A DNA stretch of 64,000 bases from an uncultured Bacteroidales bacterium. GTDB taxonomy: Bacteria; Bacteroidota; Bacteroidia; Bacteroidales; JAADJA01. The stretch lies in contig CAWJBC010000007.1 of assembly GCA_963840975.1 (NCBI GenBank), forward strand, positions 20,136-84,135, read 5' to 3'. Shown here one piece after another: positions 43,281 through 56,868 of the stretch (position 1 is the stretch's first letter; every line of letters starts with the position of its first letter). A program made the translations under genes and the position numbers. The notes under the pieces are model-generated. The model worked only from the letters and a program-made list of their open reading frames with translations. It was not told the origin of the DNA and made no database searches.

Positions 43281-45395
43281 TTATAAAGCATTGATTTCCT
43301 GCAATGCTGCTTTAACTTCAGTTACGGGTAGCCTGCACGTTTTATTCCTGCACACATAAATTGTGGTTTGACCCGCTATCAATTTATCTGCCAATAAAGG
43401 CAATGTTCCTTCATTTTTCCCCCCGGAAAAAAACACGTTGGGCAAATAATTCATGTTGAATTCTTTCTGTATTTTTTCATATTCGTTTCCAACAATGGCT
43501 ACCTCAGCCGGCGGAACGGCAAACCATGCAAGTAAAATATCCCAGTTGGCATAATACACACCTCCTGTTAAAACATCCTGATGAACATTGTTCAGCATTT
43601 TTTTTGCCATTTCGACGTAATCATCATTATAAAAGTAATGTCCTAAAATAAATAAATTTTTTGCCATTTCTGAATTGGAAGATGGAATAACATTGTCGGG
43701 AACTTCCATTTTCCGAGCGATTAATGCCGGGTCAGTATCAGAAGTGTAAAAGAACATACCACTTTCATTATCATAAAAATGAGCAATTGCATAGTCATTA
43801 AGTTGTATGGCTTCTGCCAGCCATTTCTCATCAAAAGTAACCTGATACAATTCAATAAAAGCCGCAATGGTGAACGCATAATCATCCAGAAATCCATTGA
43901 TAGTAGCCCTACCGTTTTTATAGTTTCTATTTAATCTGTTATCGGGAGTTTTGATTTTAGTATTGATAAAACGAGCATTTTGTAAAGCAATATCCAAATA
44001 TCTTTCATCATCCAAAACCTTGTAAGCGTCAACATAAGCTTTAAGCATAAGCGCATTCCAAGAAGTGATAATTTTATCATCCAGGTCTGGTCTGACCCGT
44101 TTTGTCCGCTCAATTAATAAAATGAATTTGGCTTCTGAAATTTTCTCAGCCAGTTCGCTTTCCGTGATTCTATATTTATTCGTTATCGCCTTATCGGTAG
44201 AGGTTTTAAATAAAATGTTCTGGTCATTTTCCCAATTTCCACCCTTCTCAACATTGTAATAATCCATTACCAAATCAGCATTATCGCCTAATACTTTTTG
44301 TAATTCATTTTGGGTCCACACATAAAATTTTCCCTCCTCCCCCTCGCTGTCGGCATCCAATGACGAATAAAAGCCGCCTTCAACTGATGTCAATTCTCTT
44401 TGTATGAAAGCAAGGGTTTCAATAACAATAGTTTTGTATTTTAAATCTTTGGTTTGCTGGTAGGCAGCAGAATATAAACTAACGAGCTGCGCATTATCAT
44501 AAAGCATTTTTTCAAAATGAGGCGCCTTCCAATAGGCATCGGTTGAATATCGTGAAAAGCCACCCCCGATTTGGTCGTAAATGCCACCATCCGCCATTTT
44601 ATTCAGTGTAATGGTAACCGCTTGTAAAGCATCTGCATTTTGAGTAAGGTAATGATAATGAAGTAAAAACTGACAACCGACAGGCATTGGGAATTTTGGC
44701 GCTCCTTTGTGCCCGCCCTCACTGAAATCTATATTTCCTTTCCAGTTATCGAAAGCCGTATCTAAATCCTTTACTGAAAACTCTGTTTCATTTGTATTCA
44801 GGGTAATCATTTCACTTGATTGAACTCCTTTCGTAAGTGCATCTGCCTGTTGCTCTGTTTTTTCAGGATTTTCTTTGACAAAATCAGATACTTTTTTAAG
44901 CATATCCATCCATTGCGCAGGAGGGAAATATGTCCCGCCATAAACAGGTCGTCCGTCGGGTAAAGCAATACAATTCAGTGGCCAGCCTCCCCTGCCGGCA
45001 ATCATTTGAACCGCATTCATGTATATCTGGTCAATGTCGGGTCGTTCCTCCCTGTCCACCTTAATTGATACAAAATGTTCATTCATGTATCCGGCAATTT
45101 CTTCGTTTTCAAAACTTTCATGTTCCATTACATGGCACCAGTGACATGCGGCATAACCAATACTGATAATAATCAATTTATTTTCCTTGCGTGCTTTTTC
45201 AAGGGCTTCCGTTCCCCAGGGAAACCAATTCACCGGATTGTGCGAATGTTGCAGCAAATAAGGACTACTCTCATGGATGAGCTGATTTGTGTATTTATGT
45301 TCAGTAGAATTCATTATCATTTTTTTATCTTGTGTCTGACCACAGGTTGTTAAAAAGAATAAACAAAAAAAAGCAAAAAAATATATAATCTTCAT
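43281..45395 (-). CDS. Thioredoxin-domain protein of the YyaL/DUF255 family (N-terminal Trx-like plus six-hairpin glycosidase-like domain)
   Basis: The start is taken at [18 protein letters not shown] (lipoprotein signal, ATG 45395). Motif [20 protein letters not shown]. Confidence 0.8.
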
Positions 45396-45553
45396 AAGTG
45401 TTGTAATATAGACAAATTTCAGGTGGCTGACACCAAGCACTAACAATTCCTCCCTTAAAAAATAGAAGTATCGCATTCTGATGAGATGGTTGTGTGGGTA
45501 CAAACCGACTTACTAAAAGATTAAAAAGGGAACAACGAGAGTTGAAAAAAGTT

Positions 45554-46931: not shown

Positions 46932-46939
46932 TATTTTTG
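46932..46939 (+). promoter_or_regulatory. Candidate Bacteroidota -7 promoter box TATTTTTG
   Basis: It matches TAnnTTTG, 46 nt upstream of ATG 46985 and just downstream of element copy B. Confidence 0.3.
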
Positions 46940-46984
46940 CTTAAAGTAAAACAAAAGCAACATTTCAATCCAAATCAAATTGTT

Positions 46985-47908
46985 ATGAAAACACTGGTAA
47001 TTTTTAGCATCGTTATTCTGTTGGCGATGAAGGGATTTACACAGGAATGGGCTCCTGTTGGTGCAGCCTGGCACTATACTGAAAAATTCTCATTCTGGAG
47101 TTTAAATGATGAGGATTATATAAAATACGAATCAGAAAAGGATACGGTTTTCATGGGTATAAACTGTAAAAAAATAGTTAAGCGACATGATGTATATTGC
47201 TATCAAAGACCTGAAAATGAATTCATGTATTCAAATAATAACAAAGTATATTTTTATGATCCTTCCTTTAACGAATTCCAAATGATTTATGACTTTAACG
47301 CATCCCCGGATGAATCATGGGAAATCAGGATTTATGATATGCTTTATTCTGAAACTGATACGGTCAAAATTACCGTTGATTCTTCCAATTCAATCAACAT
47401 AAATAGCCAGAACCTAAAACGGCTTTATGTTACTTATGATTTTAATAATGAATCCATCATGCCATTCGTTTATCAATCAGTTATAATAGAATCCATTGGG
47501 GATATGACTTTCATGTTTAATTTCTTTCCCGAAAATGCTTTGGCTTGCGATGATAATGTCAGTGCTGGATTGCGATGTTATGAAGATGGCATACTTGGTC
47601 TTTATGAAACAGGAATAGCTGATTCCTGCACCTACATTCACGAATGGGTCGGAGTTGATCAAACCATGAAACCTAATTTAGATGTAGTTTTATTTCCCAA
47701 TCCGGCGAGCGACGTAATTACAATAAAACCAGGCACCCATGATATTGATTGGTTTAATTTGATAAACAGCAATGGGATTACCGTAAAATCAGGAAAATTG
47801 ACCAACCATCAGATACCCGTCAGAGAATTGAACAGGGGATTGTTCATCCTTGAATTATCGGATAGTAAATCGGGAGTTTTCGAGAGGCAAAAGATTTTAT
47901 TAAAATAA
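46985..47908 (+). CDS. Secreted T9SS cargo protein of unknown function
   Basis: Signal peptide (MKTLVIFSIVILLAMKGFTQ) and a type-A CTD (VVLFPNPASDVITIK ... GLFILELSD ... KILLK). Confidence 0.7.
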   Translation: MKTLVIFSIVILLAMKGFTQEWAPVGAAWHYTEKFSFWSLNDEDYIKYESEKDTVFMGINCKKIVKRHDVYCYQRPENEFMYSNNNKVYFYDPSFNEFQMIYDFNASPDESWEIRIYDMLYSETDTVKITVDSSNSININSQNLKRLYVTYDFNNESIMPFVYQSVIIESIGDMTFMFNFFPENALACDDNVSAGLRCYEDGILGLYETGIADSCTYIHEWVGVDQTMKPNLDVVLFPNPASDVITIKPGTHDIDWFNLINSNGITVKSGKLTNHQIPVRELNRGLFILELSDSKSGVFERQKILLK

Positions 47909-49008: not shown

Positions 49009-50142
49009 TCAAACAATATAAACTGATTTTTCTCCCGGGGCAATCACTTCTCCTACTACGCTGGTATATGAATATCCAGATTGTTTTAATTCTTCGATAA
49101 TACTATCCACATTTTCCGGTTTCACAGCCATTAACATTCCACCAGAGGTCTGAGCATCAGCTACGAGCATTTTATAGTTGTATTTCAAATCATGATCAAA
49201 GTTGACATCCTGTTCTGCAAATTCAAGGTTTCGGAAAGCAGCACCCGGAATACATCCCATTTCAATCAATTCAAACACTTTATCCAGAACCGGAACAGAT
49301 CGCGTGTTTATCTTTAGGGTAACCTTGCTTGCTTTTGCCATTTTGAGGGCATGACCCAATATTCCGAACCCTGTTATATCTGTCGCGCTTCTCACATTAT
49401 ATTTCTGCATCACGTCAGCAGCACTTCTGTTCAGGTGCTTCATGGTTTTAAGTGCAGACTGATATGTTTCTTCGTCGGCAAGATCATTTCTCCTTGCTGA
49501 AATAATTACACCTGTACCGATGGGTTTGGTAAGCAAAAGAACGTCGCCCGGTTGAGCGCCGGCATTGGTGATAATCTTTTCAGGATGCACCCAACCAGTG
49601 ACCGACAAACCACAGACCGGAACATCGTTGGTGATAGTGTGTCCGCCTACTATTACACCACCCGCTTCAACCACTTTATCCTGGGCGCCTCTTAATATTT
49701 CTTTTAAAACCTCCATAGGCAATGCCGCAGGGAACAAAATAATATTCAAAGCAGTAAGAACCTGTCCACCCATAGCATATACATCACTGAGGGCGTTAGC
49801 GGCAGATATTTGACCAAAATCATAAGGATCAGAACAAACCGGTGGGAAAAAATCGGTGGTCAGCACCAGTGCATAGTCATCCCGGATTTTATAGACTCCA
49901 GCATCATCATGGGTTTCGATATCAACCAATACATTTTCATTGGTTATTTTAGGAAGGTCAGCCAGCGCTTTGTTGAGTTCTGAAGCCGATAGTTTAGCGG
50001 AGCAGCCGCCCTGCTCAACGAGTTTAAGAAGGTCGAATTTTGAGTTCGAAGCTTGAGGTTCATCTCGCGTTGCGCGAGATGAAGTTGGTTCTGCGTTCCA
50101 GGTTTTGTGTCCCGGGTCGTGTGTTTCGGGTTCTGAGTTCAT
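49009..50142 (-). CDS. selD: Selenide, water dikinase (selenophosphate synthetase), Cys-type
   Basis: LVEQGGCSAKLS active-site loop with Cys (not UGA). AIR-synthase-like core (DDAGVY, TTDFF, DPYDFGQISAANALSDVYAMGG). It has a 35-aa low-complexity N-terminal extension. Confidence 0.9.
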   Translation of the reverse strand: MNSEPETHDPGHKTWNAEPTSSRATRDEPQASNSKFDLLKLVEQGGCSAKLSASELNKALADLPKITNENVLVDIETHDDAGVYKIRDDYALVLTTDFFPPVCSDPYDFGQISAANALSDVYAMGGQVLTALNIILFPAALPMEVLKEILRGAQDKVVEAGGVIVGGHTITNDVPVCGLSVTGWVHPEKIITNAGAQPGDVLLLTKPIGTGVIISARRNDLADEETYQSALKTMKHLNRSAADVMQKYNVRSATDITGFGILGHALKMAKASKVTLKINTRSVPVLDKVFELIEMGCIPGAAFRNLEFAEQDVNFDHDLKYNYKMLVADAQTSGGMLMAVKPENVDSIIEELKQSGYSYTSVVGEVIAPGEKSVYIV

Positions 50143-50185
50143 TGAATCTTTTCTATGATCTAAATCTAATTACTACCTATTAAGT

Positions 50186-50794
50186 CTACAAATTAACCAC
50201 TTTTCCAGCTTTCAGGATGCTGTCGAGTATCTCATACATGTTGGTAACCCTTCCAACTGCCAGTTGTTCAGTTTTTTCAAAGTAGTTGAGACAGGTTCCG
50301 CAGGTGATGATTTCCACTCCGCGTTTTTCAAGTTCGGTAAGGTGAACGAGCGCCGGTGCACCTTTCAAAACCAGGTTAATGCCTGCGTTCAGGAAAATGA
50401 TCTTTTGAGGCAGTACATCATATTCCTTAATTGTATTCAACATGCTGCCCGCCAGTACCAGACCCAGCTCATTATCGCCTTCGCCGATGCGGTCTTTTGC
50501 AAAAACGACAACATAACCCTTATCAACAGGAAGGGAGGTTTCGCAATAAGGTTCCACATCTGTCAGCACTGCTGCCTTCCCTGAATTATTCACAAGTATT
50601 TCAAACTCATTTCCATTTTTAGAATGTTCTGCTGCGATGCCATTGTCTTTCAGATATCGCATCACATTCTGAACTGCAGTTTCACTGTCGAGTATAACCT
50701 TTATTGAGCCATCACGTCCGAGTTCGTTTAATGCCTTTTTTGTTTCGATAAGCGGCATAGGGCATTTCTTTCCTTTTACATCAATTGTTTTCAT
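50186..50794 (-). CDS. yedF: Selenium metabolism protein YedF (TusA/SirA-like plus DsrE-like domains)
   Basis: MKTIDVKGKKCPMPLIETKKAL contains the CPxP motif. The C-terminal DsrE-like half lies between selB and selD. The start is taken at ATG 50794. Confidence 0.8.
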   Translation of the reverse strand: MKTIDVKGKKCPMPLIETKKALNELGRDGSIKVILDSETAVQNVMRYLKDNGIAAEHSKNGNEFEILVNNSGKAAVLTDVEPYCETSLPVDKGYVVVFAKDRIGEGDNELGLVLAGSMLNTIKEYDVLPQKIIFLNAGINLVLKGAPALVHLTELEKRGVEIITCGTCLNYFEKTEQLAVGRVTNMYEILDSILKAGKVVNL

Positions 50795-50802
50795 CAAATA
50801 TC

Positions 50803-52767
50803 TCAAATTTTGTTTATTAAATCTCTTCCTTTATCAGTAATATCAATAAAAAATGATCTTTTACTGATGATCCCTTCTTCCAGAAATATTCCCTGCAGGG
50901 TTTGCACAATTTTTTTTGTGCCATCTATCAGCAGCCTGAAATCCTTTTCGTTGATACCCTTTTCTTTGCTATTCAAGTCGGTGAGCAATATTTTTCTGCA
51001 TTTGTCCACTATGGAGTGATGCAAATAATCGCCATCAAAAAAGATGATTTTCTTTTGCCTACCAAGGTATTTCAACATCATTTTCAGGCGATCTTTTGGT
51101 ATTTTATTGTTTAATGCTTTTTCTTCTATTTCCGTATCAAGCGGATTCTCCATCCCACAACTTCTGATGGTTTGTTCGAGCCAACCCAATTGTTCCTGTG
51201 TTCTTTGGTCAATCTTTACAACATGATCCGCTAATGCCCATGAAAGTCCGGTCTTTTTTATTTTTCCCTGCTGTTGAAGAATTTCCAGAAGTTCTTCGAG
51301 ATATAACTTAGCAGCTTCGTTTTTGGCAAAACCCAACTTGCCATAAAATTCCTGTAATTCAAGCCCTTCCTCAAGTATGGGATTTTTGCTGTGCCATTGT
51401 GCTATTTCTTCCAATACATTCAGGGTATATTTTTCATGAGCTTCTCGCGTCAGGAGGATGGTTTTCCCTGCCATTTCAACCACGAAAATAGAATTGTCAC
51501 TGCTTTGTTTACAACCCTCTAATACTTCTGTTTCAGGCTTTGCTATTCTTTTTGAAATTATATCAGCATAAACCGGTGCATTTTCTTTTTTAAGTTCAAT
51601 TTTAATCAGGTTTGAAATCTTGTCGCTGTTCAGGGCAGCCTCCATCAAATCTTTCAGGTTGTCCAGCAATTGAATGGTTCGTTTTTTATGATGCAATGGT
51701 TGAACATCAATGATGGTTCCCCCTCCAAGGGTGATGTCGTTTGAGGAGTTCCTCACGATATATTTGTCTTTGTTTTCAAGGATAGCCGGTTTTTCAAGGT
51801 GAAGCTGAACAATGGCAGCTTCTCCGGGTTGAATAGTATCTTTGTTCAACAGGTGCATCCTTGCAGCACATTCAAATGTACCGGTATAAAAAACTACTTT
51901 CGACCATAATCCCAGCCTTGCATCCTCCCCGAACAAAGAAAATGACGCATCAATCATACTGGTTTCACTTATCATTTTGTCCGACAGCACCATTCCTCTT
52001 TCAAAATCCTCACCTTTGATTCCAGCCATATTAAGGGCAGCCCGGTCGCCGCAATAAACTTTGTTAACCGGATTGCCATGACGCTCCAAAGCGCGAATTT
52101 TCATTTTTTTGTTCTTGCCTGGTAAAAGAAAAACATCCTTTCCGATTTCAATCTCACCTTCCAGAACGGAACCGGTTACTACAAACCCTATTCCCCTCAC
52201 ATTAAAGATTCGATCAATATACATTCGGAAATGGTCTTTTTTCTCTCTTTCCTGAACGGTCGGAACGATCTCACTTATCTTTTCAATCATTTGGTCAATT
52301 CCTTTGCCCGTAAGGGAAGAAACCGGAATCACAGGAGCACCTTCGAGACAGGTACCTTCGATGAGTTCCTCAATCTCCAATTGTGCTAATTCCAGCATTT
52401 CGTCATCTACGAGGTCGGCTTTATTCAACGCTATTATTCCATGTTTTACACCTAACATTTCAATGATTTTCAGGTGCTCGGTAGTTTGGGGCATAATTCC
52501 GCTATCGGCTGCCACTACAAGCAATACGATGTCAATTCCATACGCCCCGGCTACCATCGTTTTGATAAAATCTTTATGACCCGGGACATCAACGATACCA
52601 AACGACTGTCCATCGGGAAGCGTGATGTGTGAGAATCCCAGATTAATGGTGATTCCCCTCTCCTTTTCCTCTTTGTGGGTATCACAGTCAATCCCTGTCA
52701 TCGCTTTGATCAACGCTGTTTTACCATGATCCACATGTCCTGCAGTACCGATGATAAGATGTTTCAT
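50803..52767 (-). CDS. selB: Selenocysteine-specific translation elongation factor
   Basis: GTPase motifs [18 protein letters not shown]. The long C-terminal winged-helix extension brings it to 654 aa. The start overlaps the selA stop (ATGA). Confidence 0.92.
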
Positions 52768-54181
52768 TCGCTTGTGGTTTTAACAAAGACTTCACCAGTA
52801 ATTTCAGCAAGTTCTTCCAATTGCGGATCAGTTAAGGTAAGCACATCAAAGTAAACATCGCCTTTGCGGAGGATGGCTACAACTGGATGATTATGCTGCA
52901 TTAAACCAGAATAGAGACTTTCGGCAAATTCCGATTTCTTTCGTTTCGATTCCAAATCTATTTCAATCCGTACGGCATAACTTTCAATTTCCTTGCCGGG
53001 CAAAGCGCCTCCACCGCATTGACCTTTGCTTTTCAACACTAAAGAATTGACCCCATATTTTGAAAACAAGTTCTTTAATGATTCTGCTCGGTTCATTAGT
53101 TCTTCCGGTTTCCGGCTCATCATATTAAAAAGAAGATTTCTTTTCAAAAGTGTCTCATCATCAAGATAGGAAAATAATGCAGCTTCCATAAAAGCCAAAG
53201 TTGTTTTTCCGACACGAAGCGCCCTTACAAGCGGTTCCTTTTTCAGTTTTGCGATATATTCTTTTTTACCTGCAATGATACCTGCCTGCGCCCCACCCAG
53301 CAATTTATCTCCGCTGAAACTTACCAGGTCAACCCCGGTAGCAAGAGTTTGCCTGACATCCGGCTCATCACCTAACACTTTTATTGAGGTTTTCCTTAGA
53401 AGCCCTGATCCCATATCGTACATTACCGGAACGTCTTTCTTTTTTCCCAAAGCAACCAGATCGGCAAGCTGAACCTCCTCAGTAAAACCCTGTATGGCAT
53501 AATTTGATTTATGCGCTTTCAATAGCAAACGGGTATCCTGAGTGATGGCTTTTTCGTAATCCTGTATTTTAGTCTTATTGGTGGTTCCCACCTCCACCAT
53601 ATTGCAATCGGATGCAACCATGATGTCGGGTAAGCGAAATGAACCGCCGATTTCGATCAGTTCTCCACGGGAAACGATTACTTCCTTCTCTTTCGAAAAT
53701 ACCCTCAAAACAAGCATGAGGGCAGCAGCATTATTGTTTACCACAAGCACATCTTCAGCTCCGGTAAGATATTTTAAAATTTCTGTCAGATGTGTATTAC
53801 GCGACCCACGCTCACCTTTCGATAAGTCAAATTCCAGGTTATTATAGCCTTTCAAAATTTCAGATGCTTCCGGATAATTTCATCGCTGAATGGAGCACGC
53901 CCCAGGTTGGTATGAACAACTATTCCGGTTGCATTGATTACATTTCGAAGACTTTTGGTTGTTAGTTTGTTTATTCGTAACTTAATCAGGAGTATAATTT
54001 CCTGAATTTGAGGAATTGATCCCGAAAGGCCAGCCTCTTCCCTCAATAAACTTAACGTCTTTCGAATGGAATATTTGACGAGATCTTCATTGTGTTGAAT
54101 CAATAAATCTTTAATCTCCGGTAAAAGAAGCAATTTATCCACACCGGGGAGATTTTTAAGATTATCTGAATTCGAATTCAT
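52764..54181 (-). pseudogene. selA: L-seryl-tRNA(Sec) selenium transferase with a 1-nt deletion
   Basis: The N-terminal frame (ATG 54181) gives ...VINATGIVVHTNLGRAPFSDEIIRK and stops at 53852. The next frame continues SEILKGYNNLEFDLSKGERGSRNTHL...SRGELIEIGGSFRLPD...SFSGDKLLGG (PLP Lys). Spacing to the LE(F/Y)DL block matches E. coli SelA if one base is restored near 53865..53866. Confidence 0.85.
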
Positions 54182-54197
54182 ATAATGAGGTTTGTTA

Positions 54198-54588
54198 TTA
54201 GTTGCTGGTTTTTTGTTGCTTGTTTGTTTTCCAATTGTCTTCAACATATTGTATGAATTTATTTATTTTCGTTCCCAGGATATCATATTTCTCCATAAGG
54301 TGGGTCAACGGTTGATCCTTAAAATGAATGTCACTTATCATATTTAATTGTGAAATTGTTTCATCACACGATCCTTGGGAATATGTTAAAAACCTTATAA
54401 AATCATCCTTATATCTCCTTCTTCCATACCCTTCAACAATTTGTGTCTTTAACGCTTTTACTTGATCTTCTGACCTGACTACCTTGTTCATATAGCTCAT
54501 ACTTTGGTAAGGTTAAACTCATTATATGAACTTCAATTGCCAATTTATATGCAATTTGATAGATTTCTAAATCCTTATAGCTTTTCAT
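54198..54588 (-). pseudogene. Four-helix-bundle protein (former 23S rRNA intervening-sequence / S23-like family) with a frameshift
   Basis: ATG 54588 gives MKSYKDLEIYQIAYKLAIEVHIMSLTLPKYELYEQGSQVRRSSKSVK, then a stop at 54433. The other frame continues TQIVEGYGRRRYKDDFIRFLTYSQGSCDETISQL. One extra base lies near 54445..54447. Confidence 0.7.
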
Positions 54589-54716: not shown

Positions 54717-54810
54717 GCAGAGAGGGCAGGGATCGAACCTGCCACAGCCGGTGTTATCCGTCTGCTACTGGTTTTGAAGACCAGGTGAGACACCAGTCCC
54801 GTCCCCTCTA
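54717..54810 (-). tRNA. selC: tRNA-Sec (anticodon UCA)
   Basis: Hand fold on the minus strand: 8-bp acceptor UAGAGGGG/CCUCUCUG (two G-U pairs), D-arm GGGAC-UGGU-GUCUC, and anticodon arm CUGGU-CUUCAAA-ACCAG (UCA). The variable arm is long (about 22 nt). The 5-bp T-arm is GCAGG-UUCGAUC-CCUGC, giving the bacterial 8/5 Sec geometry. CCA is not encoded and a T-run follows. The gene is adjacent to selA. Confidence 0.85.
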
Positions 54811-54903: not shown

Positions 54904-56697
54904 TTAACGCAACAATACCATTTTTTCGGTTCTGGACTGCTCGCCCTGACTGATCCTGAAAAAATAGAATCCATCCTTAACCAAATCACCGTTTTCGTAT
55001 GTTGCATCCCAGGTCACTGAATAACTTCCGGGTATTGCTACCTCGTTGACCAATTGTTTAATCACTTTTCCACTCAGATCATAAACAACGATCGTTACTC
55101 GTCCTGCATCTGTTAATGTATATTCAATGGTCGTTTGGCTGTTGAAAGGGTTGGGGTAATTAGAACCTCCAAAAAGTCCCGATATGGTTTCGCTAAGAGA
55201 AGTGGATGGATTATAACCCAAAAAAGTATTAACCATTTCTCCGACAAGGTATGCCCTTAAATTAAGAGAATCACCTGACGCAAGGGAAGCCAATATCACC
55301 GATGAAGAAATTGCACGGTAGCCTTCATCCTCTTTGATAAAAGATCTGCCAATGCCATCTTCGCTGCTGAACAAGAGGTTACTCCCGTTCGATTCAAGGT
55401 GGTCAACACTGAAATGCGGATCGTAACCGCCGAGTGATAAATAGGTCAAATCGGAAGCCATTCCACCAGGATTGCCTTTGATTTTTACTACTTCCTGTTC
55501 AGCACCATCACCTACATACATTAATCCCAAATCATCAAAGAACGCTGTGCCTGTATGATCCAAGCCAATATTTACACTTTCAAAATATAAACTACCGCCA
55601 TTTGCAAGATAATTTATCAGTTTATTCTGGTCTGCTACACTTGCAGAACCAGGAGGCGTAAGACCTCAGTCAACACAATAGCACCCCATGGTGCTAAACA
55701 CGATTTCATAGTCGTTCAAATTATCAGGCAAATAGGTAAAATATTCATACTCCAAACCGGCTTCTTCAAGGGCGCTTGTAAGCCCCTTGGATGGTTCAAT
55801 ATTATTACCCTTTTCAGGGTCAACAACGGTTTGAATGCCATTATCATTATCCCAGACAAGTATTTGGTAATCCACATCCGGCTCAATCCTTACAAAATAG
55901 CTTTTCGAAACATTATTGGTTTCAAACTGATCGCCATCCTTTATCACCACTCCATAAAAAGCAGTATTAAAGGCTGTAGAAGAACTCCAATCAAAGTCAA
56001 ACACCAAAGTCTGCTCGGGTTGAATGCTTCCGGAATTATCCAAACTTCCGATCAGATCGCCGGATTTAAGGCTAAAAAGCTGAACAGTAAAGTTTTCCGC
56101 TATTTCGCTGCCCAGGTTTTTCACTAACACACTCCAGGTTCCCGTTTCGAGTAGTTCAATTTTTGTCGGTCCAATGATGGAAGTAACCGTCAAATCATGA
56201 TCAAAAAATGCCGACATTTTTACATCGAAAATATCCCACCAGTTCCAGTTAAAGGTATCCTGCCCATAAGTCCGGAATTCGACCTGAACATTTTGGCCGG
56301 CAAAATCTTCAATAGGAAAGGATAATTCCACCCCGTTTCCGTTTCCCCAGTTTCCATTATTCAAATTATAATTCCACAGCACAGTGGTAACTCCATCCAC
56401 GATCAGATTGATTTCGGCGAATTCAGTTCCTGTTCCTGTAAACACATCCAAATATTGGTTGACAGTTAATTCATAAATATTTTCGGGAAGCGAGATAACC
56501 GGCGAAACAGCCGACAAATCAAATCCCGGTACCTGTGGGCTCCAGTAGAATTCAAGTTTACCTCCTGCAATGCTCCAGTTTTCCTCAAGCGACCATCCCT
56601 GACCATTTCCAAAACTCTCGGACCAGGTATAGGTCTGGGCAACTGCAGGCAGTTTGAAAATAAATATTAGCAATAACAAGTAAAGTAGTTTCTTCAT
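54904..56697 (-). CDS. Candidate secreted selenoprotein: signal peptide plus unknown domains plus CxxU site (UGA 55666..55668) plus T9SS type-A CTD, 597 codons
   Basis: ORFs 55666..56808 and 54904..55563 are in the same frame, with no stop other than one TGA between them (...EIVFSTMGCYCVD-UGA-GLTPPGSASVADQNKLINYLANGGSLYFESVNIGLDHTG...). The start is taken at MKKLLYLLLLIFIFKLPAVAQ (ATG 56697). The C-terminus NYPNPFNSQTTIEY...FYFFRI...MVLLR is a T9SS CTD that only makes sense if read-through occurs. A SECIS-like hairpin lies 13 nt after the UGA, and tRNA-Sec is 94 nt downstream. Confidence 0.6.
55627..55652 (-). promoter_or_regulatory. Candidate bacterial SECIS hairpin
   Basis: Minus strand: UGA, then 13 nt, then CUGGU(U)CUGC AAGUGUA GCAGACCAG. 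This gives a 9-bp stem with one bulged U on the 5' arm and a 7-nt apical loop containing GU, features shared with the E. coli fdhF SECIS. Confidence 0.55.
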
Positions 56698-56868
56698 AAA
56701 GTTCAGATTTAAAACCCGTGTAAAAATAATACAAATATGACAATGAATACATTCATTAGGTTGCCTGAATAAAATCAGGGAAAAATACATAACCCAATAC
56801 CGAAACATTCATTATCGTATTTTTGTTTTGAAATCAGATAAATTTTTAAATACAAAAAAAGAAATATC

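Follow-up and report, generated by a model that had tools for sequence, protein, structure and literature searches.

A probable selenoprotein family of Bacteroidales-type bacteria with type IX sorting signals, usually encoded beside the selenocysteine machinery

The 64,000-nucleotide stretch considered here (the window), part of contig CAWJBC010000007.1 from an uncultured Bacteroidales bacterium, contains on its minus strand two neighboring open reading frames (ORFs) that very probably constitute a single gene for a 597-residue selenoprotein, with one internal UGA codon predicted to be read as selenocysteine (Sec) at residue 344. That this is a true Sec-encoding gene for a cargo protein of the type IX secretion system (T9SS) seems to us close to certain from the comparative genomic evidence, and the gene belongs to a large, apparently undescribed selenoprotein family of Bacteroidales-type bacteria whose members are predicted to be exported by T9SS and are usually encoded beside the Sec machinery. 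The single gene, the conserved UGA, the Cys homologs, the conserved hairpin, the sorting signals, and the synteny with sel genes described below are evidence at the level of sequence, and from these we infer the actual insertion of Sec, the export and final location of the protein, its redox chemistry, and its substrate.

Translation of the minus strand from 56697 to 54904 gives 343 amino acids, a TGA at 55666..55668, a further 253 amino acids, and a terminal TAA. The surroundings of the TGA read ...FSTMGCYCVD*GLTPPG..., or in longer form ...YEIVFSTMGCYCVD-UGA-GLTPPGSASVADQ..., and a mechanical list of ORFs breaks the gene into two pieces, 55666..56808 and 54904..55563. The features that define the gene are these:

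54904..56697, minus strand: complete predicted selenoprotein gene of 597 codons plus TAA, with Sec at codon 344, in one frame with one internal TGA.
55666..55668, minus strand: UGA codon predicted to be read as Sec, residue 344; TGA in 50/50 Sec-type loci, TGT or TGC in two Cys homologs.
55666..55677, minus strand: C341-V-D-U344 motif; C-x-x-TGA in 44/44 close sequences, CxxC in homologs.

A preliminary description of this DNA had reported two ORFs in one frame split only by this TGA and had argued that nothing short of the fused 597-residue product would make a sensible T9SS cargo. Our translation confirms the first statement, and the second stands as well: there is a signal peptide upstream of the TGA and a T9SS C-terminal domain (CTD, matching PF18962 and TIGR04183) downstream, and with these signals at opposite ends only the fused product is a coherent cargo. 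Its statement on start codons fared less well, since the internal TTG it had named as the sole candidate for the downstream part (codon 34 after the TGA) shares the frame with an ATG at codon 48, and both of these internal codons lack conservation.

A protein search with the fused sequence returned 106 clusters, with identities down to 39%, each of about 343 aa and each ending at the UGA site (...MGC[YF]C[VL][DS]), and a search with the C-terminal part returned 32 proteins of at most 252 aa that start at arbitrary internal residues. Protein databases therefore look as though homologs terminated at this codon, a pattern that the preliminary description had named as evidence against a selenoprotein, but the DNA behind the entries tells a different story. 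We located 43 genome loci with a relative of the gene, in metagenome-assembled genomes (MAGs) of Bacteroidales, Lentimicrobiaceae, 'Chlorobiota', and Sphingobacteriia; the window, these 43 loci, and 6 more distant metagenome loci make up 50 Sec-type loci. The homologous codon is TGA in the window, in 43/43 genome loci, and in 6/6 distant metagenome loci, and it is never TAA or TAG. The terminal stops of the 43 loci are mixed (28 TAA, 8 TAG, 7 TGA), so a TGA at the internal site in 44/44 sequences is not explained by stop-codon usage. In the same 44 sequences the frame continues past the TGA to a T9SS CTD and then a true stop, and the peptide after the TGA is highly conserved (U-G-x-T-P-P-G-x-V-x-x-x-D-Q-x-K-L-x-x-Y-L-x-x-G-G-x-L-Y-x-E-S). 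The portion G-x-T-P-P-G-x-V-x-x-x-D-Q-x-K-L ranks among the best-conserved parts of the protein, with variation falling mostly at third codon positions. No conserved start codon follows the TGA in the 43 loci, where the first ATG lies at 21 different codon positions and is missing from one locus altogether.

If the UGA were instead a genuine stop and the downstream part an independently translated second gene, then the division of every database entry into an N-terminal and a C-terminal half would be expected, and the internal TTG and ATG in the window would offer places to begin. Such an arrangement is hard to reconcile with a TGA in 50/50 loci when the true stops are mixed, or with the lack of a conserved start when at least 15 codons ahead of any possible start are strongly conserved as protein. 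It also conflicts with homologs that carry TGT or TGC at the codon and read straight through, and it would leave a C-terminal half with a CTD and no signal peptide next to an N-terminal half that breaks off inside an α/β domain. In the AlphaFold2 (AF2) model of the C-terminal half alone, the CTD is confident and the α/β part fails (pLDDT <50), as expected if the UGA cuts a domain in two, which argues for one polypeptide. On these comparisons we regard the proposal of two genes as effectively refuted and its probability as minute, and the split database entries would be an annotation artefact of the UGA with no real gene boundary behind them.

The Cys-containing relatives of this predicted selenoprotein emerged when the C-terminal α/β part was used for an exhaustive profile search, which yielded 267 representatives at 50% identity (E ≤ 0.001). 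Among the best 150 of these 267, about 140 start right after the Sec position and are C-terminal halves, and about 5 are read-through proteins with CxxC, so that in this set Sec forms greatly outnumber Cys forms, an excess suggesting that selenium gives a real advantage at the site. P0153 is full length with the same architecture (...MGSYCVGCG...) and has TGT as its Sec-equivalent codon (locus L044); P0163, also full length (...LWCLSCS...), has TGC (locus L045). In P0202, P0219, and P0266, which likewise have CxxC, the α/β domain directly follows the signal peptide. Five further distant C-terminal halves could be traced to contigs, and each has ahead of it, in-frame, an ORF of 80–96 residues that encodes a signal peptide plus the opening strands of the α/β domain and ends in TGA. 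At the two most divergent loci a C-U dipeptide takes the place of CxxU: L050 (TGA at ~2974, ..WFRC-U-G..) and L051 (TGA at ~2962, ..GWWC-U-G..). The comparison called for in the preliminary description thus returned homologs that run through the position, with TGA or a Cys codon there and conserved sequence on both flanks. One public entry, P0204 (L046, 251..1285), shows Trp at the site where the codon is TGA, its contig having been translated with genetic code 4; code-4 entries of this kind can hide selenoproteins as seemingly complete proteins.

Downstream of the UGA lies a hairpin that could serve as a bacterial selenocysteine insertion sequence (SECIS):

55626..55653, minus strand: SECIS-like hairpin within the coding sequence, with a stem of 9–10 bp from which a U bulges and AAGUGUA as its 7-nt loop, from the minimum free energy (MFE) fold and conservation.

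In the window it reads CUGGU(U)CUGC-AAGUGUA-GCAGACCAG, at 55627..55652, with the stem beginning 13 nt downstream of the UGA and the apical loop 23 nt downstream. The MFE fold of a 66-nt stretch includes it (−18.4 kcal/mol, z = −2.3), but 6/200 shuffles fold as well, so the fold of the single sequence only weakly beats chance, and the significance of the hairpin comes from its conservation. A gapless alignment of 44 sequences over 60 nt from the TGA has a conserved stem at columns 16–26 and 34–43, bulged at column 22 and capped by a loop of 7 nt, and its consensus is CCUGGU-U-UUGU / AAAUGCA / ACAGACCAGG. Across these sequences 88% of the hairpin cells are paired, compared with 18–45% when the 3' partners are slid by 1–3 columns; changes on both sides occur at four pairs (18:41, 23:37, 24:36, and 26:34), and the covariation score is reached by 0/500 shuffles. 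At synonymous sites within the hairpin, the G of a Gln CAG never varies, and conservation at the third bases of GAC and GUA is ≥90%. The hairpin proposed 13 nt after the UGA in the preliminary description is thus present in the fold and kept in the orthologs with UGA. Bacterial SECIS elements, by the criteria of bSECISearch, have an apical loop about 16–37 nt from the UGA with G or U in the loop, and the window hairpin has such a loop at such a distance. The distant Sec members carry unrelated hairpins that start 14–21 nt after the UGA, such as CGGAACC-GUG-GGUUCCG in L047, UCGCUC-AGUUG-GAGCGA in L050, and, in L051, a 9-bp stem with loop GGA (GAUUGCUCC-GGA-GGAGCAAUU). We consider these unrelated hairpins at a similar position the strongest argument that selection acts on structure and not on sequence. 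A second hairpin of 7 bp, UAGCACC-AUGG-GGUGCUA (55679..55696, minus strand), ends 10 nt before the UGA; we do not count it as part of the element because only about one ortholog in two has a similar fold, which is largely a by-product of the S-T-M-G-C codons.

The genes needed to decode a UGA as Sec lie immediately downstream, on the same strand:

54717..54810, minus strand: tRNA-Sec (selC), anticodon UCA, detected both with ARAGORN and with Rfam RF01852 (55.7 bits against a gathering score of 47).
49009..54247, minus strand: selA (frameshifted in the assembly), selB, yedF, and selD, matching NCBIfam equivalogs TIGR00474, TIGR00475, TIGR03527, and TIGR00476.

The stop of the predicted selenoprotein gene is 93–94 nt upstream of tRNA-Sec, and no intrinsic terminator was found between them in a promoter and terminator scan, which omits Bacteroidota promoters. 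The two tRNA methods agree on the tRNA-Sec that the preliminary description had placed here, and all members of its selA-selB-yedF-selD operon were found, with a linkage that is conserved; what needs amending is that selA is split by a 1-nt frameshift. Among the 43 loci, 25 have tRNA-Sec 3' of the gene in the same orientation and 27 have selA-selB 3' of it, mostly followed by yedF-selD. The order [gene]-tRNA-Sec-selA-selB is conserved in both of two paralogous subfamilies, one of which has Thr or Ser for the first Cys of GCYC and includes the sel-linked members L033, L037, L039, L041, and L042 (L037 and L041 have selA-selB with no tRNA-Sec at that place). Several MAGs hold two paralogs; in 3/4 such pairs one copy adjoins sel genes, and in the fourth pair neither does. 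This synteny offers a testable tie between the protein and selenium metabolism. At L048 (231..2429) a 732-residue gene fusing a NifS-like class V aminotransferase to SelD (AIRS) stands directly upstream of a distant family member, a further link of the family to selenium metabolism.

The selA gene of the window (52764..54247, minus strand) occupies two overlapping ORFs owing to a 1-nt deletion within 53852..53865, in a G run near 53858–53862; the site reads ...ATCCGGAAGCATCT... and yields EIIRK followed by HLKF*, where orthologs remain in one frame with EII[HDR][ED]A[SA].... An assembly error is most simply the cause. Between tRNA-Sec and selA there is also an ORF for a four-helix-bundle protein (TIGR02436 family; 54198..54500, minus strand). 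In the closest loci, L001–L003, selA begins about 30 nt after the tRNA, so that this ORF looks like an insertion.

Could the UGA be decoded as something other than Sec, as Trp or Gly by an alternative code or by near-cognate read-through? The Trp in P0204 and the frameshifted selA of the window might be cited in favor of this, but the Trp stems from a gene caller that used code 4, TGA is a real stop in 7/43 orthologs and UGA is thus not generally a sense codon, and the read-through homologs align Cys, the standard counterpart of Sec, and neither Trp nor Gly. The window moreover encodes a dedicated tRNA-Sec and SelB, and a conserved hairpin follows the UGA; we give decoding of this sort hardly any credence. 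A nonsense mutation in a pseudogene is excluded by conservation over 50 loci.

The predicted selenoprotein has a signal peptide, a MAM-like jelly roll, a CARDB immunoglobulin (Ig) domain, an uncharacterized α/β domain with C341-x-x-U344, and a type A T9SS CTD, laid out as follows:

56638..56697, minus strand: Sec-translocon-type signal peptide by inspection, residues 1–20, with predicted cleavage between ..AVA and Q; AF2 helix 2–14.
56209..56634, minus strand: MAM-like jelly-roll β-sandwich, residues ~22–163, from AF2 and Foldseek.
55882..56193, minus strand: CARDB-type Ig-like domain, residues ~169–272; Foldseek match 3idu, TM 0.78, root-mean-square deviation 2.1.
55183..55872, minus strand: uncharacterized α/β domain spanning the UGA, residues ~276–505, recurrent in T9SS cargo.
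54916..55158, minus strand: type A T9SS CTD, residues 514–594, matching PF18962 and TIGR04183.

The signal peptide, MKKLLYLLLLIFIFKLPAVA followed by Q, is conserved among the homologs, and this Q21 is invariant across 25 that were aligned; exported proteins of Bacteroidota typically have Gln as the first residue after cleavage. AF2 modeled the N-terminal half with a pLDDT of 90, and the best Foldseek matches of its jelly roll are the MAM-Ig module of RPTPmu (2c9a, E = 5e-9) and meprin. Pfam CARDB scores 20.0 bits on the Ig domain, under its cut-off of 22.7, and the CTD reaches 32.7 bits with PF18962 (cut-off 27) and 40.6 bits with TIGR04183 (cut-off 23). Searches of Pfam, NCBIfam, and PDB sequences gave no match to the α/β domain above threshold. 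In the AF2 model it opens with a strand at 279–284 (ILVWDN), a helix at 302–312, and strands at 317–320 and 332–337 (EIVFST), after which comes G-C-Y-C-V-D-U. The Cys-x-x-Sec motif that the preliminary description had put after a predicted β-strand is accordingly preceded directly by the strand 332–337, and in the AF2 models of the halves it falls directly after a β-strand and before a helix, which, as modeled, is a classic redox arrangement.

Members of the family differ in length beyond the Sec position. L018, L019, and L030 are long variants with 520–545 residues after Sec, in which extra repeated modules (..FQF[IV]S..DDLDFIR.S.G...RKIGP.WVNGIG..) stand between the α/β domain and the CTD. 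In L001 and L023 the frame after Sec stops early, at 171 and 174 residues, where the CTD should start; these stops are probably frameshift errors of two MAG assemblies.

Several observations weigh against a secreted selenoprotein with a redox centre, and they are best considered together. RNAalifold keeps just 6 pairs of the hairpin with a weak covariation term, and the covariation we report is modest and confounded by coding constraints. An Rfam scan gave no SECIS-type match in the region. The fdhF-type consensus has a G among the first two bases of the apical loop, and the apical loop in the window has G at positions 3 and 5. Of the two Cys loci, L045 folds weakly at the equivalent place (−4.2 kcal/mol), but L044 can still form a 6-bp hairpin there. 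The selA frameshift, if real, would break Sec synthesis in the organism. Some relatives have no Cys at the site at all (P0261, P0277, P0281, which is a subtilisin fusion, P0274, and P0280), and this implies that the domain has a function independent of the redox pair. The predicted nearness of CxxU to conserved acidic residues comes from topology, the α/β domain having been modeled as halves, and the support for selenium in the protein and for its secretion is derived from sequence.

In the mechanism that we propose, a complex of SelB, GTP, and Sec-tRNA(Sec) would be recruited by the hairpin 13 nt after the UGA, and UGA344 would be read as selenocysteine, with the decoding machinery (tRNA-Sec, selA, selB, and selD) supplied by the genes directly downstream. 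The N-terminal signal peptide would take the precursor over the inner membrane via the Sec translocon, and the type A CTD would pass it to T9SS and then be removed, leaving the protein anchored at the surface or released. Cys341 and Sec344 would occupy the loop that follows strand 3 of the α/β domain, at the C-terminal edge of the sheet, where a Rossmann-type topology would bring the motif next to the invariant acidic residues that end strands 1 and 4 (D283/D285 and E373). C341-x-x-U344 may then be a reactive centre that acts on an extracellular substrate in anoxic habitats, either by cycling between thiol/selenolate and selenenylsulfide or by binding soft metals or chalcogens. We favour a surface or secreted centre of one of these kinds, redox or chalcogen/metal-binding, and among specific functions a thiol/selenol oxidoreductase is our tentative preference, one that we would put at somewhat under even odds from the family's sequences.

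The main functional rival is that the Cys/Sec site is mainly a high-affinity binder of soft metals or chalcogens (Hg, Cu, polysulfide, or selenium species), which it would capture, detoxify, or hand over at the cell surface without being a catalytic oxidoreductase. L050 and L051 have C-U in place of CxxU, and a CU motif has precedent in the extracytoplasmic SaoB and SaoC, where it is tied to heavy metals (Haft and Gwadz). Conserved acidic residues near the site and a gene with an HMA domain near the distant member L047 would also suit this role. No metal-binding family in Pfam or NCBIfam matched the protein, however, the neighborhoods are not metal-resistance operons, and the spacing of CxxU or CxxC after a β-strand is the classic redox layout, so that binding as the main task, if possible, seems to us rather unlikely.

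A role in supplying selenium to the Sec pathway, for instance by capture or reduction of extracellular selenium compounds, would explain the linkage to selC-selA-selB-yedF-selD. The order of tRNA-Sec and selA-selB is kept in 25–27 of the 43 loci and in two paralogous subfamilies, L048 brings the NifS-like/SelD fusion next to a distant member, and the gene and tRNA-Sec have no detected intrinsic terminator between them. Yet 16/43 loci, some of them second copies within one genome, lie away from sel genes, both Cys-containing and Cys-free relatives exist, and a selenoprotein required to acquire selenium would face a bootstrapping problem. Selenoprotein genes are often linked to sel genes with no role in selenium uptake, and we consider this function doubtful.

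Lower still we place a purely structural purpose, in which Cys and Sec form a permanent selenenylsulfide cross-link that stabilizes an extracellular protein where ordinary disulfides fail, as in reducing, sulfidic habitats. The protein is predicted to be extracellular, its source organisms are anaerobes judging by the origins of the MAGs, and the excess of Sec forms (~140 against ~5 of the best 150) would be understandable on this basis. Where an α/β sheet has its active-site edge, though, a loop pair spaced by two residues is typical of reactive centres and not of structural ones, and relatives that lack both residues keep the fold, which makes a structural bond improbable.

Returning to a reactive CxxU centre, one may go further and propose that this is the first selenoenzyme family that T9SS displays on the outer surface or secretes, with a function coupled to the adjoining Sec machinery. 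From the present sequence comparisons this is unlikely to hold in full. If true, the protein might be an extracellular selenol catalyst that reduces or captures selenium, polysulfide, or soft metals for anaerobic Bacteroidota, Sec would be nearly obligatory, as the scarcity of Cys forms hints, and the α/β domain would be a new catalytic fold.

The domain itself extends well beyond the predicted selenoproteins. It recurs in many T9SS cargo proteins, including the subtilisin fusion, and the broad family shows no variation at D285, E373, and D432 and very little at D283 and R451. The Sec/Cys pair appears from these alignments to be a feature of only part of a broader, unannotated domain family, in which the CxxU site marks the probable active centre of an α/β domain widespread in T9SS cargo. 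Its elements, β-α-β-β-(loop)-α-β, then a β-rich section and a helix at the end, come in an order that resembles that of class I glutamine amidotransferase-like (flavodoxin-like) domains such as PF22369 (GLMA_2nd) and the GH42 trimerisation domain. A helix-GG-strand motif, LINYLxNGGxLYIES, matches PF22369 below threshold in 10/32 members (14–20 residues, 12–16 bits against a cut-off of 27.7). The α/β domain of the window protein has neither a nucleophile elbow nor a PDB sequence relative, and we treat the suggested fold assignment as a lead only.

How does this family compare with known selenoproteins? Its decoding system is the ordinary bacterial one: as in the SelW-like, AhpD-like, DsbA/DsbG-like, and Trx-like selenoproteins, there is an in-frame UGA with a near downstream hairpin, and the Sec machinery is in the genome. 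Many predicted selenoproteins carry CxxU or UxxC redox motifs (PMC13188914, a 2026 review of prokaryotic selenoproteins), and the window protein shares with these the spacing of Cys and Sec by two residues after a β-strand and the existence of Cys homologs. It differs from them in lacking any known redox fold, thioredoxin-like or otherwise, with its motif set in an unannotated α/β domain, and in being a large, multidomain protein with a T9SS sorting domain. No thioredoxin-like match to the window protein was found in Pfam or NCBIfam, and its motif comes after strand 3 of another kind of α/β domain; the protein is not a member of the thioredoxin fold, but it may work like one. It also departs from most selenoprotein families in the Global Ocean Sampling (GOS) tables in that its Sec forms exceed its Cys forms.

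Selenocysteine outside the cytoplasm has been proposed before. SaoB, SaoX, and SaoC (Haft and Gwadz) and the periplasmic DsbA/DsbG-like proteins also have Sec-translocon-type signal peptides, and some of the Haft and Gwadz members have CU and Cys-rich motifs, as the distant members of the window family have C-U. All of these belong to the substrate-binding proteins, the lipoproteins, or the thioredoxin-fold proteins, with no T9SS cargo among them; unlike SaoB, SaoX, and SaoC, the window family is predicted at the outer surface of diderm Bacteroidota, which it would reach by its type A CTD. Seen from the other side, the window protein resembles ordinary type A cargo in its signal peptide with Gln, its β-sandwich and Ig modules, and its C-terminal PF18962/TIGR04183 domain, and it stands apart by its predicted selenocysteine. 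We found no T9SS cargo with selenocysteine in the literature searched or in the 2026 review (PMC13188914), which does not contain the words 'secret', 'sorting', or 'Bacteroid' and in which none of the Table 1 rows examined fits. A search on selenoprotein or selenocysteine together with type IX secretion gave no relevant paper, a prior description in the work of Haft being not fully excludable.

The preliminary description had gone further in calling known bacterial selenoproteins essentially all cytoplasmic or Tat-exported. This is too strong, since exported ones have been predicted or discussed before, among them DsbA/DsbG-like proteins, SaoB/SaoX/SaoC, an outer-membrane barrel family, a selenobacteriocin, and candidate secreted proteases (Haft and Gwadz; GOS; PMC13188914). 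The family matches no NCBIfam or Pfam model, and against NCBIfam release 20 the fused protein has CTD-type matches only and no selenoprotein family model. Four features are apparently new: the family, the unannotated domain that it carries, its predicted route through T9SS, and a strong excess of Sec over Cys forms combined with a conserved selC linkage.

In every database examined, members of this family are split into two "hypothetical" genes, and the close subfamily alone comprises >100 clusters at 90% identity, next to the 267 representatives of the domain at 50% identity. Reading the UGA as Sec would repair these annotations and add a family to the selenoproteome of a phylum that surveys hardly cover, and it would mean that selenocysteine passes through the Sec translocon and T9SS to the exterior of diderm bacteria.

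Two other genes lie within a few kilobases of the sel operon of the window. One, on the minus strand (43281..45503), encodes a 740-residue protein with DUF255 and thioredoxin domains, and the other, on the plus strand (46937..47908), encodes a second protein with a T9SS C-terminal domain.

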